Made by a program: the position numbers and the translations under genes. Positions 2,588 to 17,973 of a DNA stretch of 34,628 bases are shown in pieces. Below the pieces are notes generated by a model. That model saw only the letters and a program-made list of their open reading frames with translations. It searched no databases and was not told the DNA's origin. The stretch's first letter is position 1. Each line of letters opens with the position of its first letter. The stretch covers positions 1-34,628 of the IMG/VR virus record IMGVR_UViG_2558860472_000005; one strand, written 5' to 3'. This DNA is from a virus. Taxonomy: Duplodnaviria > Heunggongvirae > Uroviricota > Caudoviricetes.

Positions 2588-2946
2588 TTCTTAGTCTCCG
2601 GTGCTTTCGGCATTACTGCCCAGTGAGTGATATTGACATTTTCAAGGTCCCCGACCTGAAATGTCCGCTGCCATTCTCCGGTTTCTTTTTGCCCCCATGT
2701 GTACCAGAGAGAACGCCAGCCAATCAGCCAGCCTTCTCCACTAGCATCAAATAACAGAACACTTTCATTTGCTGGTGGCAGTTCAGCTGACACTGGTATT
2801 ATTTTGTTTTCCAGTGCCGCACATTTAGCTTCAAGCGCGTTGAATTTACGTACTAGGTACTCAGCATTTGTTTCGTTCACTTTCAGATCTCGCGGTACAC
2901 ATTTCCCGCGAAGAAACCCTTCCATTTCGAAAACATTCATGCGCAT
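2584..2946 (-). CDS. Hypothetical phage early protein
   Basis: 120-aa ORF with phage-core composition, co-oriented and overlapping its neighbours; no family recognised. Confidence 0.45.
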   Translation of the reverse strand: MRMNVFEMEGFLRGKCVPRDLKVNETNAEYLVRKFNALEAKCAALENKIIPVSAELPPANESVLLFDASGEGWLIGWRSLWYTWGQKETGEWQRTFQVGDLENVNITHWAVMPKAPETKK

Positions 2947-3500
2947 TTGCGTAACTCCGATAACTCGTTAAAACGTTCCATAAACATCCCGTAGGCCTGG
3001 CCCGGTGCCAGTGGAATCACGTTGAACATCTCTGTTGCCGGGATGCCTTCCAGTACAGGCCAGAAAGAGCCATCATCAAGCCCGAGATCGCGGCGTTCGG
3101 TTGCCAGCATGATGAGATCGGCATATTTCACAGGCGTGCTCATAACCGGGGGTAACCCGTATTTTTCACGGATTACGGCGTCTATTTTTTCTTCCATCCG
3201 TTTATAGTCAGGAAGAAGGCGTTTCAGTGGAGCCGGGATGTCCTGGCAATACGCTTCTGTTGCATCATGCATTAACGCTTCAAAAGCAAATTCCTGCGGT
3301 ACCAGCTGGCTGCAAAGCACCGCATGTTGGGCGACGCTGTAGAAGTGTGAAAGATGTCCTGCAAAGCGACAGATATTTGAAAGGGAAACCGCGATATCGT
3401 TAATAACGATGTCGTCTTTATTTATCCTGTCATAATAAAAATGCTTCCCGGAAAAAGTTTTAATAAATGACATTTTGTTCTCCACGTATATGCGCTGCAC
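2937..3500 (-). CDS. HD-domain phosphohydrolase (prophage YfdR-like)
   Basis: H...HD metal-binding signature (SVAQHAV ... ALMHDATEAY); YfdR resemblance is from memory. Start may be the second Met at 3473. Confidence 0.7.
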   Translation of the reverse strand: MQRIYVENKMSFIKTFSGKHFYYDRINKDDIVINDIAVSLSNICRFAGHLSHFYSVAQHAVLCSQLVPQEFAFEALMHDATEAYCQDIPAPLKRLLPDYKRMEEKIDAVIREKYGLPPVMSTPVKYADLIMLATERRDLGLDDGSFWPVLEGIPATEMFNVIPLAPGQAYGMFMERFNELSELRKCA

Positions 3501-3540: not shown

Positions 3541-3960
3541 GATTATTGAGTCAATTACATTTCCATAAATGCCCCCGTAGGGGCGGTTAGTTTCTCCACA
3601 AAACAGAGAAGAACACCTGTGGTGGCAGCCGCCCGGATGGATTGGGTTATGAGCCCGTCGTCCGATGATGCTCTTCTCTGTTTTGTAAAAAGGACGGTAC
3701 CAGCCGGAAGCAAGGGTACAAGCTGGTACCGCCAAGACAACACACAGCATAAAGTTGTGGTGCCGGGTGCCTCCCGGTGCCTGGCGAAGGTTGTACACCA
3801 GACGGGTGGGTATCCACAGAAGGTCGACTGTCAGCCTCAACCTTAACCCGCGTGCGCTGAGCCGCATTCACCACAACGCTAAGGATTCTCTCTGGTTGAA
3901 AATACTTAGCTGTTATGTGCCTGCTTTTAGCCACATCAGGCGAGGTGGACCTGGTTATTC
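3541..3960. other. GC-rich structured non-coding region (candidate ncRNA or cis-acting leader)
   Basis: No protein-like ORF despite long overlapping ORFs on both strands; hairpin GCCCCCGTAGGGGC at 3571-3586; perfect 15-bp inverted repeat ACAAAACAGAGAAGA (3598-3612) / TCTTCTCTGTTTTGT (3672-3686); 10-bp stem CGGTACCAGC / GCTGGTACCG (3695-3731). Confidence 0.3.
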
Positions 3961-4017
3961 CCCAACAACAAGGATTCGGTATAATCTGGATATCCCAACA
4001 ACAGGTAGGAAGGAAAT

Positions 4018-4101
4018 ATGTACGTAGATAGCAATGAAAAATTTCATGTTCCGGTAAATCAGAGACCAGCACCGATCCCTGAGCCGAAACCTGAAATGTA
4101 A
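4018..4101 (+). CDS. Proline-rich micro-ORF a (27 aa)
   Basis: ATG preceded by strong SD AGGTAGGAAGGA; peptide MYVDSNEKFHVPVNQRPAPIPEPKPEM; shares an H-[VI]-P...P-x-P-[ES]-P-K motif with two downstream micro-ORFs. Confidence 0.35.
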   Translation: MYVDSNEKFHVPVNQRPAPIPEPKPEM

Positions 4102-4111
4102 GGGAATAGAG

Positions 4112-4591
4112 ATGACTCGAGACGATCTAGCATTCGATATTCATTATTCTTTCTTTCTTGAGAAAATGAATTACACCCTTTTAAATCGGATAGACAAGAG
4201 CATAACTCTTGTTCTCATTGTCTTGGGCTTTTCTGTTTTTGCGCCATATAGCAATATGTTTATTTTTGGCGCATCTGTAGCTATTTTGTCGGTGCTTCAA
4301 TTGGTATACCAATTTGGGCAGGAAGCTGGCTTATCAAAGGAACAGATGCGACAGTATAAAAGGTTGATTGTTGAGTTTTCCTCCCTTTCTGATGACGAAC
4401 TACGCACTCGGTTTTTAAAGGTTCAAGACGCTGATAGTAATCCATGGAGATCTTTACAAGATGCTGCGTTCAAACGGACCTGTATTGCGCTGGGACGTGT
4501 TGATGAGTCAGAAATATCATTCATGCATAGCGTTATCGCATGGTTTGCTGGAGATTTGCCTCGGTCAAAAAGGTGTAATAATGACAAATAG
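4112..4591 (+). CDS. Two-transmembrane-helix membrane protein (AT-rich cargo)
   Basis: 159 aa; SD AGGGAATAGAG upstream; two adjacent hydrophobic helices (ITLVLIVLGFSVFAP, MFIFGASVAILSVLQLVYQF) then a charged C-terminal domain; packed between micro-ORFs. Confidence 0.6.
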   Translation: MTRDDLAFDIHYSFFLEKMNYTLLNRIDKSITLVLIVLGFSVFAPYSNMFIFGASVAILSVLQLVYQFGQEAGLSKEQMRQYKRLIVEFSSLSDDELRTRFLKVQDADSNPWRSLQDAAFKRTCIALGRVDESEISFMHSVIAWFAGDLPRSKRCNNDK

Positions 4592-4697
4592 AATTCCCAT
4601 AATCCCTAACCATGTACCTCCAAAGCCCAGACCACCATCACCAAAGTCACACAGGCTTTATGAGTATGAATTAATAATGGATTCTATATTGAGATGA
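4581..4697 (+). CDS. Proline-rich micro-ORF b (38 aa)
   Basis: ATG overlaps the end of the upstream 2-TM gene; peptide MTNRIPIIPNHVPPKPRPPSPKSHRLYEYELIMDSILR; paralogous motif to micro-ORFs a and c. Confidence 0.3.
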   Translation: MTNRIPIIPNHVPPKPRPPSPKSHRLYEYELIMDSILR

Positions 4698-4701
4698 CCA
4701 A

Positions 4702-4791
4702 ATGAATGCATTTATATATACATGGAAAGAGGATCATATACCCTTAAAACCTCGTCCTTCACCGCCAGAACCGAAGCCAAAATCCCGTTAA
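4702..4791 (+). CDS. Proline-rich micro-ORF c (29 aa)
   Basis: Begins 5 nt after micro-ORF b; peptide MNAFIYTWKEDHIPLKPRPSPPEPKPKSR; followed by a terminator. Confidence 0.3.
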   Translation: MNAFIYTWKEDHIPLKPRPSPPEPKPKSR

Positions 4792-4823
4792 GTGTTGGGG
4801 ATCTCCAGATTGTTAAAGAGCGA

Positions 4824-4849
4824 AGCGTCCTATAGGGCGCTTTTTTGTT
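4824..4849 (+). terminator. Rho-independent terminator ending the plus-strand cargo operon
   Basis: Stem AGCGTCC / GGGCGCT (one G-U pair) with TATA loop, followed by TTTTTTGTT. Confidence 0.5.
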
Positions 4850-4960
4850 GCTAACGAATCATCCTGGACTTCATATGCCCCAGGCGGCTACTTCGTGGGC
4901 GTCCTGCCTGTTCGTTGTTTCGCTTGGGTACATTATGTATCTCAAAGGTACATTGTCAAG

Positions 4961-4986
4961 TATAAAAAAACCTGCCGAAGCAGGTT
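4961..4986 (-). terminator. Rho-independent terminator downstream of cI
   Basis: On the minus strand, stem ACCTGC / GCAGGT with 4-nt loop followed by a 7-T run; about 13 nt past the cI stop. Confidence 0.6.
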
Positions 4987-4998
4987 CATAAACATTGA

Positions 4999-5673
4999 TT
5001 AGGCTTTGATTTTGTATCTTCTTGGTTTTCCTGAGAAAATCACTGTACCAATTATAGAGCAATTACCGTTGATCTTAATGTAAGGCTCAGGCCAGTTTGG
5101 GTTTAACGCTTTGAGATAACGCTGTGTCCCATCTTCTATCAACCTTTTGAAGGTGGTTTCACCTGTATCGTGCATCAATGCAATAACGTCGTCACCGTGG
5201 CAGGCAGGTACTTCAGGATCGACAAAAATCATGTCTCCCGGGCGGTACTCATCAATCATTGAATCACCTATCACCCGCAAGATATAAGTCATTTCCCCAC
5301 AGGGTACAGGGCAGGGATACGTTTCTGCTGTGCTCAAATCAACCTCAGAATATCCAACTTCTTTCCATGCTCCGGCCTGTACCCATGATATGACAGGGAC
5401 TAATGTGATTTGTTTATTAGTGATTGAAACATCAGGTTTTTTTGTGATGTTCGTTGTCTGGTGTTCTTGATCGAGCCATCCGACAGGCAGGTCGAAACAT
5501 CTTTCGATGTGTCGTGCCATGCTGTCACCGATATTTTTAGTAGCACCATCTCCCATAAACCTGCTGGTCTGGGTTGGCTCGCGATCAATCATAGTGGCAA
5601 AGGAAGAATTCCCGCCAACACCATCTCTCAGTTTTCTGGCGTTAGACCGCCGGATGTCATGGATTGTTTTCAT
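4999..5673 (-). CDS. cI: CI-type repressor (HTH plus S24 LexA-like peptidase domain)
   Basis: 224 aa; C-terminal S24 signature (GDSM nucleophile Ser, downstream Lys in TTFKRL); candidate Ala-Gly autocleavage site (VQAGAW); divergent from the Cro-like gene. Confidence 0.85.
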   Translation of the reverse strand: MKTIHDIRRSNARKLRDGVGGNSSFATMIDREPTQTSRFMGDGATKNIGDSMARHIERCFDLPVGWLDQEHQTTNITKKPDVSITNKQITLVPVISWVQAGAWKEVGYSEVDLSTAETYPCPVPCGEMTYILRVIGDSMIDEYRPGDMIFVDPEVPACHGDDVIALMHDTGETTFKRLIEDGTQRYLKALNPNWPEPYIKINGNCSIIGTVIFSGKPRRYKIKA

Positions 5674-5688
5674 AACGAAATTAAAACC

Positions 5689-5760
5689 CTTGTACCGTTA
5701 AGGTACAAGTATCTTGAAGGTTCATTTTAATCATGTAATATGTACACCGGAGGTACATAT
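5689..5760. promoter_or_regulatory. cI-cro intergenic operator/promoter region
   Basis: Palindrome CTTGTACC-n5-GGTACAAG (5689-5709) and ATATGTAC-n7-GTACATAT (5738-5760); four GTAC cores in two pairs 11 bp apart; candidate rightward promoter -35 TTGAAG (5714-5719), -10 TAATAT (5736-5741). Confidence 0.45.
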
Positions 5761-5763
5761 TGT

Positions 5764-5964
5764 ATGAAAGCGTATTGGGACTCTTTAACCAAAGAACAGC
5801 AGGGCGAGTTGGCCGGAAAAGTTGGCTCAACACCTGGCTACTTACGGCTGGTTTTCAATGGCTATAAAAAAGCCAGTTTTGTGCTGGCTAAAAAACTTGA
5901 GCAATGCACGTCAGGTGCAATTACGAAATCTGACTTAAGACCGGATATCTATCCGAAAGATTAG
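5764..5964 (+). CDS. cro: Cro-like HTH regulator (YdaS/Cro family)
   Basis: 66 aa from ATG 5764 (ORF-track start 5740 less likely); divergent from cI; C-terminal ...ITKSDLRPDIY motif typical of this family. Confidence 0.7.
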   Translation: MKAYWDSLTKEQQGELAGKVGSTPGYLRLVFNGYKKASFVLAKKLEQCTSGAITKSDLRPDIYPKD

Positions 5965-12014: not shown

Positions 12015-12637
12015 TTTATTTACTGTCGTTGCCATATTTAATAATGGCTTCGATTATCATAAAGCTTAAAGTTAAAAGTATAATTGATGATTATGAGAAA
12101 TGTACTACTTATATTTACTGTAACTCGAAGAAATATAATAACATTTCTCCTGTTATGATTGATATATTAAGGTTAGCAGAGGATCATCGACAATTATTGC
12201 ATAGAGGGATTGACCCCATTGCAATCATTAGAACTTTTTATCTGAGGATATTTAAAAATATACACCAAGGAGCGAGCACTATAGAACAGCAGTTTGTGAG
12301 AACTATAACTAAAAGATACGAAAAAACAATACGTAGAAAGATAAGAGAGCAGATATTGGCTATATTGATTAGAAATGTATCAACTCCAGATGATATATGT
12401 AAGTGTTATCTTTCTTGTTGTTACTATGGCTATGGAACTTATGGGATAGATAATCTTTTAAAAAAGAAACAAAATATCAGTGATTTTGATATTGTTGCAA
12501 TGATTAAATATCCATTCAGGGGAGAAGTTGTTTCAGTTACAGAGGAACGATTTAAACATAGGTCGCTCTATCTTTCCACTTTATATAAATTAAATGCACA
12601 AAGGGATATGATTTTTTTGCGAAAATATAGTGGGTGA
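11993..12637 (+). CDS. GT51 (peptidoglycan glycosyltransferase/transglycosylase)-like domain protein, membrane-anchored
   Basis: 214 aa from GTG; hydrophobic N-terminus; four GT51 motifs in order and native-like spacing: EDHRQLLHRGID, GASTIEQQ, RRKIREQ, YLSCCYYGYGTYG; both putative catalytic Glu present. Confidence 0.7.
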   Translation: MAAKKFLIYLLSLPYLIMASIIIKLKVKSIIDDYEKCTTYIYCNSKKYNNISPVMIDILRLAEDHRQLLHRGIDPIAIIRTFYLRIFKNIHQGASTIEQQFVRTITKRYEKTIRRKIREQILAILIRNVSTPDDICKCYLSCCYYGYGTYGIDNLLKKKQNISDFDIVAMIKYPFRGEVVSVTEERFKHRSLYLSTLYKLNAQRDMIFLRKYSG

Positions 12638-12834
12638 TTATGTTAAGTGTATTTTATTATGTGTCAAAAAGTTTAGTCATCTCTGCTTAATGTATAATCG
12701 TGAATGTTTTTATTCAGATTTTATGCATGTCAAGTTGATGAGTGCCGTCGACATAAGATATGGGGATAATGAATAGTTTACAATCGTAAATAATAGAATA
12801 TCCTGTTAAAAGTGGTTACTTCTCCACGCAGCTT

Positions 12835-12865
12835 AAACCCGCCGTCGAGCGGGTTTTGTCGTTTC
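12835..12865 (+). terminator. Rho-independent terminator upstream of holin (tR-prime-like)
   Basis: Stem AAACCCGC / GCGGGTTT with 6-nt loop followed by a T-rich tract; about 145 bp upstream of the holin start. Confidence 0.45.
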
Positions 12866-13008
12866 TGGGTCTGGGGATTCCTTGGTCCTAGCCTATCCCG
12901 CAGTTATCCATTAACTCGGCTTCTTTGACGTTTCCGCTTCTGATTTGCGGTACATGATGTTTCCTCAATTTGCACCTGCTGTATCAGCGAGGTGAGAGAT
13001 AACTACAA

Positions 13009-13335
13009 ATGCCTCATAACCCAAATACCTGGCTGGAGTTGGTCCAGAGCTGGTGGCGTGGAGACACACCGCTGGGCGCAGTGATTATGTCGATCGTTAT
13101 GGCTGGTTTACGTATTGCCTATTTTGGCGGCGGTGGCGGATGGAAACGAAAAACACTCGAAATTTTGCTCTGTGGCGCTCTGACGCTGACATTTGCATCC
13201 GCTCTTGAGTATGTCGGATGGCCTAAATCACTTTCTGTTGCCATTGGTGGTGGTGTTGGGCTGATCGGTGTCGATGCTATTCGTGGGGCAGCAATGCGAG
13301 TAATCGGTAACAAATTTGGTAGCTCGAAGGAGTAA
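13009..13335 (+). CDS. S: Holin (lambda S family)
   Basis: 108 aa; three hydrophobic segments and charged C-terminus; directly upstream of an R-like endolysin. Confidence 0.85.
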   Translation: MPHNPNTWLELVQSWWRGDTPLGAVIMSIVMAGLRIAYFGGGGGWKRKTLEILLCGALTLTFASALEYVGWPKSLSVAIGGGVGLIGVDAIRGAAMRVIGNKFGSSKE

Positions 13336-16243: not shown

Positions 16244-17973
16244 GCCGGAAATCTTACCCCAACGTAAATGCTGCCAATCAGTATGCCCGTGATGTCGTGC
16301 GCGGAAAGATTGTGGCCTGCCAGTTTGTGATTCAGGCCTGCCAGCGCCATCTTGATGACCTGATGGCGGAAAAAAGTAAGTCGTTTCGTTACCGCTTCGA
16401 CAAGGACCTGGCTGAACGGGCCGCCAAATTTATTCAGCTGTTGCCGCACACCAAGGGTGAGTGGGCATTCAAGAGGATGCCCATCACGCTGGAGCCGTGG
16501 CAGCTCTTTGTGATCTGCTGTGCGTTTGGCTGGGTCAATAAAGGGTCCCGGCTGCGCCGCTTCCGGGAGGTGTATACCGAAATCCCCCGTAAGAACGGCA
16601 AATCGGCAATCTCTGCCGGTGTCGCCCTGTATTGTTTTGCCTGTGATAACGAGTTTGGCGCGGAAGTGTATTCCGGTGCCACGACAGAGAAACAGGCGTG
16701 GGAAGTCTTTCGTCCGGCGCGACTGATGTGTAAACGCACACCCATGCTTACGGAAGCGTTCGGGATTGAGGTTAACGCCTCAAACATGAATCGTCCGGAG
16801 GATGGCGCGCGGTTTGAACCGCTGATCGGTAACCCCGGTGATGGATCATCACCCCACTGTGCGGTGGTGGATGAATATCACGAGCACGCCACCGATGCGC
16901 TTTACACCACGATGCTTACCGGGATGGGGGCGCGACGTCAGCCACTGATGTGGGCCATTACTACTGCCGGGTACAACATTGAAGGGCCGTGCTACGACAA
17001 GCGGCGGGAAGTTATCGAGATGCTCAACGGCTCGGTACCCAACGATGAACTGTTCGGGATCATCTATACCGTTGACGAAGGTGACGAATGGACCGACCCG
17101 CAGGTGCTGGAAAAAGCCAATCCAAATATTGGGGTGTCGGTTTACCGTGAGTTTTTGTTAAGTCAGCAACAGCGTGCGAAAAATAACGCCCGTCTGGCAA
17201 ACGTCTTTAAAACAAAACACCTCAATATCTGGGTGTCGGCGCGTTCGGCGTATTTCAACCTGGTGAGCTGGCAGAGCTGCGAGGATAAATCACTTACCCT
17301 TGAGCAGTTCGAGGGGCAGCCGTGCATTCTGGCCTTTGACCTGGCGCGTAAGCTGGATATGAACAGCATGGCGCGACTTTATACCCGCGAGATTGACGGT
17401 AAAACGCATTACTACAGTGTGGCCCCGCGTTTCTGGGTACCGTATGACACGGTGTACAGCGTCGAGAAAAATGAAGATCGCCGGACCGCCGAACGCTTTC
17501 AGAAATGGGTGGAAATGGGCGTCCTGACCGTTACCGATGGTGCAGAGGTGGATTATCGCTACATCCTCGAAGAGGCCAAAGCGGCGAACAAAATCAGCCC
17601 GGTCAGCGAGTCACCCATCGACCCCTTCGGGGCGACCGGGCTCTCACATGACCTTGCTGATGAAGACCTGAATCCCGTCACTATCGTCCAGAACTTCACC
17701 AATATGTCCGATCCGATGAAAGAGCTGGAAGCAGCGATTGAATCGGGACGTTTTCATCATGACGGCAATCCCATCATGACCTGGTGTATCGGCAACGTGG
17801 TCGGCAAAAACATGCCGGGTAACGATGATGTGGTGAAACCCGTCAAAGAGCAGGCGGAAAACAAAATTGACGGTGCAGTTGCGCTGATTATGGCGGTTGG
17901 CAGAGCCATGCTGTACGAGAAAGAAGACACGCTGTCTGACCACATTGAGTCCTACGGGATCCGCTCGCTTTAA
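16240..17973 (+). CDS. Terminase large subunit
   Basis: 577 aa; ATPase region (PRKNGKS Walker A-like) and C-terminal nuclease region; position before portal. Confidence 0.9.

Follow-up and report, generated by a model that had tools for sequence, protein, structure and literature searches.

The DNA analysed here is a stretch of 34,628 nucleotides (nt), held in IMG/VR as record IMGVR_UViG_2558860472_000005 and referred to below in its whole length as the window. It is a lambdoid prophage of E. coli, with an integrase gene at 978-2144 on the minus strand, the LexA-type repressor gene ymfK/cI at 4999-5673 on the minus strand and cro/ymfT at 5764-5964 on the plus strand; replication, Q, lysis, head and tail genes lie 3' of cro/ymfT. 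Between the early-left genes and cI is a tightly coupled plus-strand operon at 3961-4849, here called the cassette. It encodes a protein with two transmembrane (TM) segments, the 2TM protein, together with three very short proline-rich open reading frames (ORFs), which we call micro-ORFs a, b and c. The elements of the cassette and of the conserved DNA in front of it are listed below.

3916-3949, plus strand: first part of the conserved upstream block, TGTGCCTG-CTTTTAGCCACATCAGGCGAGGTGG, with GCCTG/CAGGC inverted at 3919-3941
3961-3970, plus strand: direct repeat 1, CCCAACAACA, co-varying with repeat 2
3980-3985, plus strand: candidate -10 hexamer TATAAT, between the two CCCAACAACA copies
3983-4002, plus strand: left arm of an inverted repeat, AATCTGGATATCCCAACAAC, containing direct repeat 2 and overlapping the end of the -10 box
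3994-4003, plus strand: direct repeat 2, CCCAACAACA, inside the left inverted-repeat arm
4018-4101, plus strand: micro-ORF a, 27 amino acids (aa), MYVDSNEKFHVPVNQRPAPIPEPKPEM, with a Shine-Dalgarno (SD)-like AGGAAGGA at 4007-4014
4112-4591, plus strand: ORF of the 2TM protein, 159 aa, WP_000196297.1
4581-4697, plus strand: micro-ORF b, 38 aa, MTNRIPIIPNHVPPKPRPPSPKSHRLYEYELIMDSILR, its ATG overlapping the 2TM stop (11-nt overlap)
4702-4791, plus strand: micro-ORF c, 29 aa, MNAFIYTWKEDHIPLKPRPSPPEPKPKSR, starting 4 nt past b
4792-4811, plus strand: right arm of the inverted repeat, GTGTTGGGGATCTCCAGATT, complementary to the left arm and followed by a conserved GTTAAAGAGC and the terminator
4822-4849, plus strand: intrinsic terminator, a hairpin at 4822-4843 plus a T-run (GAAGCGTCC-TATA-GGGCGCTT + T6), kept in relatives

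The stop codon of micro-ORF a lies 10 nt before the ATG of the 2TM gene, and the SD duplex of micro-ORF a amounts to −6.5 kcal/mol. Within the cassette RefSeq annotates the 2TM protein alone, as a hypothetical protein, and micro-ORFs a, b and c are unannotated. An earlier note on this DNA had listed the TATAAT box, the direct repeats, micro-ORF a, the 2TM protein, micro-ORFs b and c and the terminator, and every one of these was found where it had been placed. The anatomy also agrees with the description given there of a self-contained plus-strand cargo operon running antisense to the early-left genes.

Homologous loci were gathered from genomes, assemblies and IMG/VR and yielded 66 distinct cassettes spanning at least 10 enterobacterial genera; a scan of genome contigs gave only 3 loci. 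The cassette is present in 53 of 5,426 complete E. coli genomes, in a prophage in every case, and its patchy distribution is confined strictly to prophage immunity regions. A screening pattern picked up an upstream micro-ORF in 58 of the 66 cassettes, with 6-20 nt (mostly 8) between its end and the start of the 2TM gene; among the 8 loci without a pattern match, L006 at least does carry such a micro-ORF. One to three matching micro-ORFs lie 3' of the 2TM gene at all loci except L088, and the copy number per locus runs from 1 to 4. Micro-ORFs b and c are fused into a single ORF in L002 and in L012/L013/L076. In Pectobacterium (P0022) an orthologue of b is fused in frame to the C terminus of the 2TM protein, and this fusion occurs in two different genomic flanks.

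The three window peptides have in common the motif H-[VI]-P..[KRQ]-x-R-P-x-P-x-P, for which they use different codons. The K-P-R-P element that had been read as shared by all three is present in b and c; peptide a has N-Q-R-P. The regular expression H[VILM]P.{1,3}[RKQ]P.P.{0,1}P has exactly 3 matches in the six-frame translation of the window, all of them in a, b and c, and 0.01 matches per Markov-shuffled window. Since this expression was composed post hoc, the independent evidence is the conservation of the motif at other loci. Peptides b and c are identical at 7 of 11 motif residues, 5 of which are specified by different codons, and the two reading frames agree at 10 of 11 second codon positions and 5 of 11 third positions. 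In the comparison of a with c, 3 of 15 codons have the same base in third position; within the window, third positions agree no better than random.

At the other loci the upstream peptides follow the consensus ..[DE]Y.E[KR]-H-[MLV]-P-x-[KR]-Q-[RK]-P-P-x-P-P-K-P and continue into an acidic tail (PKPKDEDD and PPKPDDSD are examples), and the downstream peptides follow the basic consensus H-[VI]-P-P-[KR]-P-R-P-P-x-P. The median net charge is −1 for upstream and +3 for downstream peptides. All four proline codons are used, and the non-proline positions (His, aliphatic, Lys/Arg) are conserved. Over an 11-codon core, the pooled pairwise ratio of nonsynonymous to synonymous differences (pN/pS) in frame was 0.39 for upstream and 0.36 for downstream micro-ORFs, part of this conservation being imposed by the anchoring of the core on H.P; pS was 0.75-0.79, near saturation. 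In the two remaining reading frames of this DNA, pN/pS was 1.1-2.2. The start codons of the micro-ORFs are conserved, and SD-like sites precede 94% of the upstream micro-ORFs, 91% of the 2TM genes and 58% of the downstream micro-ORFs, compared with 15% of background positions. Because pN/pS is frame-specific, SD sites are in place and the peptides are conserved, the comparison indicates that the micro-ORFs are protein-coding genes overlooked by annotation. The earlier note had proposed that the three are paralogous, dissimilar in their DNA and under selection for the peptide. This is borne out by the codon comparison and by the dN/dS-type comparison across homologues, which found in-frame constraint and peptide-level conservation across genera. 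Searches of eight micro-peptides against Pfam and PHROGs gave no match.

The micro-ORFs travel with the 2TM gene and not with its genomic position: other cargo at the same slot, in SfIV, PhiR29_1, Kati and Pocitis76, is without such micro-ORFs, and the association is exclusive to the 2TM family. Relatives of the 2TM protein at 25-35% identity are found on other phage backbones, and in each of them a proline-rich micro-ORF ends 2-12 nt before the 2TM start. These distant carriers are the P2-like phage Fels-2, P2-like prophages of Hafnia and Pectobacterium, Yersinia vB_YenM_42.18, Providencia PSTNGR2lys, EKP1 and an IMG/VR contig, L090. The upstream peptide of Fels-2 is MSDSDNFHVLPRPAPAPKPEPGQDKK. 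Downstream copies were seen at lambdoid loci only, with none in the distant relatives, where the motif is reduced to a generic PxPxP. Because all distant relatives keep the upstream micro-ORF, the sequences point to an ancestral unit made of one proline-rich microprotein and the 2TM protein. The P2-like phages carry the module antisense to the early lytic operon, as the lambdoid hosts do. Viral scans started from three single distant proteins found no relatives for two of them and one locus, L090, for the third (P0090).

Among the lambdoid upstream peptides, 29 of 31 contain a Pro-Pro doublet, as do 51 of 52 downstream peptides. Peptide a of the window and the whole P2-like clade have none and retain the PxPxPxP periodicity despite this; peptide a resembles the type found in that clade (FHV..RPAPxPxPEP).

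Both the 2TM homologue and the micro-ORF are unannotated in Fels-2 (L091, NC_010463.1 30343-30801, plus strand), where the record annotates an opposite-strand ORF, STM2733.1.Fels2, over the same DNA; this is probably a mis-call. The P2-like prophages with the distant module (L096-L099) have a gene for an ATPase of ~470 aa (AAA_15/AAA_21) after the CI gene, at about 4423-5459, possibly with a role in defence.

The 2TM protein has hydrophobic segments at residues ~30-47 and ~51-68, joined by a 3-residue loop and flanked by basic residues on both cytoplasmic sides, so that its earlier description as a two-TM protein is confirmed by hydrophobicity. The C-terminal helical region of ~90 aa is predicted to be cytoplasmic, and the AlphaFold2 (AF2) model is all-helical with a predicted local distance difference test (pLDDT) score of 72.7. 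The predicted arrangement of two adjacent TM helices and a cytoplasmic α-helical region is that of SLATT proteins. A search for SLATT relationship, which the earlier note had recommended, detected a distant affinity in members of the family; the window protein itself falls below threshold for every SLATT model. Specifically, NCBIfam SLATT_4 matched 20 of 64 distant members weakly at E≤0.05 (best 2.7e-5) and UniRef labels three 2TM homologues as SLATT, while the Pfam SLATT models matched 0 of 64 family members. The 2TM protein had no match in Pfam or PADLOC and is assigned to phrog_6315, a group of unknown function. Its family has 243 representatives at 50% identity, of which nearly all full-length ones are stand-alone proteins of ~150-180 aa. 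On sequence grounds we regard it as a stand-alone family with weak similarity to SLATT_4. The neighbours in ~20 inspected loci were phage immunity and early genes, and none of these loci had a signal-generating enzyme (SMODS, SLOG, reverse transcriptase or TIR) near the 2TM gene.

The position of the cassette relative to the repressor-controlled early promoter is set by two features on the opposite strand.

4916-4932 and 4936-4952, minus strand: oL operators, TGTAC-N7-GGTACA, 17 bp, matching the three at oR (5691-5757)
4959-4932, minus strand: leftward promoter pL, TTGACA-16-CATAAT, overlapping oL, between cI and the cassette

Operator-like 17-mers number five in total, two at oL and three at oR between cI and cro. 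With pL/oL between cI and the cassette, the cassette lies inside the pL operon and transcription from pL passes through it antisense. The locus had been described as that where lambda carries rexAB. We reject this placement: pL/oL at 4916-4959 and the opposite strand refute it, as RexAB sits between cI and oL in lambda and the cassette lies beyond pL/oL. PHROG, Pfam and PADLOC searches of the 2TM protein gave no match to Rex proteins.

The cassette occupies the sieB slot, an assignment made because it lies inside the pL operon and behind the same upstream block that precedes the sieB genes of lambda and of the Hafnia phage Pocitis76. The lambda sieB gene, on the plus strand, likewise lies within the pL operon, with N on one side and ral on the other. 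The Pocitis76 gene behind this block matches PF14163 at 3.7e-21. Homology of the 2TM protein to SieB was rejected, as there was no Pfam match and hhalign of the family profile against Pocitis76 SieB gave a probability of 0.3%. Cargo at this locus is variable, as shown by the genes that other phages carry behind the same upstream block: a BssS-family protein in Salmonella phage F1055 (L102 2108-2359), a 144-aa protein without family in SfIV (SfIV_36, L023 2619-3053) and a coiled-coil plus zinc-ribbon protein in PhiR29_1 (L024 about 2632-3135). Taken across phages, the sequences indicate that the sieB slot serves generally for the exchange of cargo. An antisense position among lytic genes is regarded as a hallmark of the accessory loci of prophages (PMC7067206).

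An Rfam scan gave no match inside the cassette and a single, sub-threshold match outside it, to STnc100 (RF02076; 39.6 bits against a gathering threshold of 47, E 1e-6), at 3684-3907 on the minus strand, on the pL transcript beyond the cassette. This stretch overlaps a RefSeq "frameshifted hypothetical protein" at 3555-3874 and may be a structured early-left leader RNA and not a pseudogene. In E. coli GE3 (L001 2036-4452), ISEc23, an IS66-family element, has entered the early-left region, with yfdR on one side and the cassette on the other, and would interrupt the pL operon at that point.

The ~90-nt block 5' of micro-ORF a is more conserved at the DNA level than the coding genes (40 loci), and it also precedes other cargo in phages that share the flanks. 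Its first part is identical at 29 of 32 positions to the DNA upstream of lambda sieB; the lambda counterpart of the block is NC_001416 34394-34499 (L103 495-600) and that of Pocitis76 is L101 2498-2610. Lambda, too, has two 10-nt direct repeats, spaced by 34 nt, with a -10-like box between them and the ATG of sieB behind them. The repeats read CCCCAACAGTCA in L042/L059 and ACCCCTACAG in lambda and Pocitis76, and the spacing is 33-34 nt throughout. That the two copies change in concert at constant spacing suggests that one common factor reads both. A -10-like box stands at the same place in relatives (TAATCT, GATAAT, TATTAT, TATATT, TAAACT in lambda and TATAAA/TAAAAT in Pocitis76), and the perfect TATAAT of the window is due to a 1-nt insertion. 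It is a plausible candidate for the cassette promoter; no recognisable -35 element was called before it. RNA structure in the upstream block was considered and rejected, since RNAalifold gave 10 pairs, none with covariation. The ACAAGGAT in repeat 1 and the SD-proximal AAGGA resemble GGA sites of the CsrA type.

The arms of the inverted repeat that brackets the cargo co-vary across lineages. Duplexes between arms of the same locus had a mean of −20.2 kcal/mol versus −17.6 kcal/mol for mismatched arms, with 0 of 10,000 permutations reaching the observed value, and variant lineages ranked their own partner arm 1st to 4th of 29. This right arm is also found behind the different cargo of PhiR29_1 and SfIV. 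The inverted repeat could be a target of RNase III, could mark the edge of the cassette in the DNA, or could bring together the two ends, 5' and 3', of an RNA, either the cargo mRNA or the antisense transcript from pL.

The cassette is a good candidate for a new phage-exclusion or toxin module. Our tentative model, the best supported of the readings yet short of probable, is a lysogen-expressed exclusion or abortive-infection module that combines a SLATT-like membrane effector, microprotein partners of polyproline-II type and antisense silencing from pL. For this module we infer protein-protein interaction, membrane toxicity, an anti-phage role and antisense silencing. The cassette would be an accessory "moron" operon in the sieB-equivalent slot, and the 2TM protein an inner-membrane effector with both ends in the cytoplasm. 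The microproteins would take up an extended polyproline-II conformation and bind the cytoplasmic part of the 2TM protein as its cognate regulators, either as subunits that gate it or work like an antitoxin, or as the element perturbed by an invading phage. A membrane-permeabilising effector would thereby stay silent in the healthy lysogen; superinfection would upset the balance, and the effector would then abort the infection or exclude the phage. Upon induction of the prophage itself, derepressed pL would transcribe antisense across the cassette and shut it down, giving self-immunity. The peptide product, beyond the mere act of translation, seems to matter, because non-proline positions are conserved, copy number varies, a natural fusion exists and PxPxP is found in peptides that have no Pro-Pro.

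Several results weigh against this module. The sole NCBIfam match of the 2TM protein was TIGR04402, at a sub-threshold E of 0.01, and no SLATT model of that collection matched it; nor does PADLOC have a model that matches. In the AF2 model of the natural fusion between 2TM protein and peptide, pLDDT was ~62 at the proline-rich tail compared with 43-47 in the linker, a modest rise that is not decisive. The BssS-family cargo shows that the slot can hold a non-defence gene. Finally, the near-universal Pro-Pro doublets of the lambdoid set, and the position of the motif over the next ribosome-binding site, are features that direct attention to translation.

Among known systems, SieB of P22 and lambda (PF14163) with its partner Esc would be a close functional analogue in the same slot. 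SieB is a membrane abortive-infection protein that is antagonised by the small polypeptide Esc, and an antisense RNA, sas, is involved (PMC12197685, PMC7067206). The two systems share the slot and the orientation, antisense inside the pL operon downstream of repressor-controlled pL, and a homologous upstream block in which a pair of direct repeats encloses a -10-like box; both would also have a small inner-membrane protein made from the prophage, which for the 2TM protein is a prediction. They differ in that SieB has no sequence or profile similarity to the 2TM protein, that the partners in the cassette are separate proline-rich micro-ORFs whereas Esc is an internal-start product of the membrane protein, and that the 2TM module occurs in P2-like phages too.

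SLATT proteins are predicted pore-forming effectors of defence systems, and those known have as partner an enzyme producing a signal, either a nucleotide or cDNA (bioRxiv 10.64898/2026.04.29.721553). The 2TM protein resembles them in its two-TM hairpin with cytoplasmic helical extension, in its weak sequence affinity and in its mobile-element or conflict contexts. Unlike them, the cassette has no enzyme, and the sole partners are microproteins of ~21-70 aa. RexAB is comparable in being expressed from the prophage, lying beside the immunity region and including a membrane protein. This protein, RexB, has 4 TM segments and is thought to depolarise the cell, and RexA is a 279-aa sensor. RexAB is however co-transcribed with cI, from a position between cI and oL on the cI strand, opposite to that of the cassette, and has no homology to the cassette, whose microproteins are far from the 279 aa of RexA. 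As in type II toxin-antitoxin systems, a mobile element carries a small gene whose translation is coupled to that of a larger gene downstream, which may be toxic. In this case, however, the candidate "antitoxin" is 24-43 aa long and has no DNA-binding fold, and extra copies lie downstream.

A cis-acting translational role of the micro-ORFs is the main rival of the exclusion module and a serious alternative to it, or an additional function, as the two readings do not exclude each other. The micro-ORFs would be translational sensors, hard-to-translate leaders and trailers that tune ribosome entry on the coupled 2TM gene in the manner of IRD/EF-P-type control, with translation speed set by elongation factor P (EF-P), ABCF factors, Mg2+ or tRNA-Pro charging. 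In its strict form, in which the peptides have no function of their own, we consider this reading rather doubtful. It accounts well for the tight gaps, those noted above for the upstream micro-ORFs and the overlaps and 4-nt gap downstream, for the Pro-Pro doublets and for the position of the proline-rich stretch, which ends 1-6 codons before the stop, so that a paused ribosome would cover the next ribosome-binding site. The acidic upstream tails resemble the Pro/acidic translation-aborting leaders of the Salmonella mgt loci, and the mgtL/mgtP-type leaders and EF-P stalling likewise involve a very short, proline-rich, acidic ORF directly 5' of a regulated gene (PMC8092293, PMC11162784). The cassette departs from such leaders in several respects. 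Its peptides are conserved beyond the prolines, at the His, aliphatic and Lys/Arg positions. The P2-like clade and peptide a lack Pro-Pro yet keep the H-hydrophobic pair and PxPxP; 1-3 extra paralogous copies lie 3' of the regulated gene, where a leader is unnecessary; an in-frame fusion is tolerated; and neither an attenuator structure nor alternative mRNA pairing was found in the 5' block.

A lysogenic-conversion function at the membrane apart from defence, for instance in tolerance to stress, in modulating the envelope or biofilms or in governing the lysis-lysogeny physiology of the prophage itself, is in our judgement unlikely. The cargo exchanged at the slot gives it some substance, as the BssS family of F1055 is that of a biofilm regulator and the proteins of SfIV and PhiR29_1 are unrelated soluble ones, and so does the fact that no known defence model was matched. 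Against it speak the promoter block and slot of sieB type, the SLATT-like effector architecture and the patchy distribution tied strictly to prophage immunity regions.

The earlier note had likened the peptides to proline-rich antimicrobial peptides (PrAMPs), such as oncocin, apidaecin, metalnikowin and Bac7. In such a reading the peptides are the effectors, mimics of PrAMPs that bind the ribosomal exit tunnel or DnaK, and the 2TM protein is a helper, immunity or release factor. PrAMPs are cationic peptides defined by a Tyr (YL/YR/YI) flanking PRP, and when made inside cells they inhibit E. coli (PMC10862732). The downstream peptides are similarly short, with ~30% proline and a median charge of +3, and their core H[VI]PP[KR]PRPP, with PRPP after an aromatic-like and an aliphatic residue, compares with YLPRPRPP of oncocin and YIPQPRPP of apidaecin (PMC10862732). 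The part of the likeness that stands is PRP in b, in c and in 46 of 52 downstream peptides. PRP is absent from peptide a and from all upstream peptides (0 of 31), which are the most widely conserved component and have a negative median charge, and the hallmark Tyr is replaced by His with a spacing of one extra residue; His is present in all 81 distinct motif cores by construction, because the extraction pattern required it. The cassette peptides are, moreover, phage-encoded and made in the bacterial cytoplasm, where a constitutive translation inhibitor would be costly to the lysogen. The motif also decays to generic PxPxP in distant clades, and chance similarity is easily obtained among low-complexity Pro/Arg sequences. 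The likeness thus remains speculative, and peptides that are effectors in their own right are very improbable. A broader and somewhat less remote proposal, still one we would give little weight, is that temperate phages of enterobacteria make a hitherto unseen class of cytoplasmic proline-rich microproteins of ~21-70 aa, which act either as endogenous PrAMPs on the ribosomal tunnel or DnaK or as the first "keys" gating a SLATT-type pore, in a form of abortive infection that has a polyproline-II sensor or regulator in place of an enzyme or nucleotide signal.

That the micro-ORFs are not genes, and that the proline motif arises by chance or as a side effect of C-rich signals in RNA or DNA, is hardly credible: their lack of RefSeq annotation and the absence of the three window peptides from a collection of 15 billion proteins would agree with it, but it is contradicted by the frame-specific substitutions, by conserved starts and SD sites, by synonymous sites that are saturated while the peptide is kept across genera, by the rarity of the motif in shuffled windows (0.01 matches) and by relatives already catalogued as proteins, namely QPB11296.1 and UKL15127.1, which are annotated coding sequences, and TCL06857.1 at NCBI.

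In the literature and defence libraries searched, the module is undescribed, its coverage in the prophage defence screen of Brenes and Laub (2025) not being excluded. The microprotein partners form a new family, for whose genes the comparative evidence is strong; the function proposed for them is what we infer from that comparison. A conserved, essentially unannotated microprotein family is hereby added to prophage biology. Its pairing with a stand-alone SLATT-like effector suggests that a membrane effector may be controlled without a signalling enzyme. The sieB slot, with its promoter block, paired repeats and co-varying inverted repeat, offers a simple landmark by which more exclusion genes can be searched for in genomes. 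At ~0.9 kb the system is small, and it is present in the tractable strains E. coli 042 and in Fels-2 of Salmonella LT2, so that the hypotheses are directly testable.

Two further small genes of the same prophage, at 12580-13017 and 16304-16624 on the minus strand, are candidate accessory (moron) loci; they stand behind Q and behind the lysis genes and are read in the direction opposite to the late and lysis operons.

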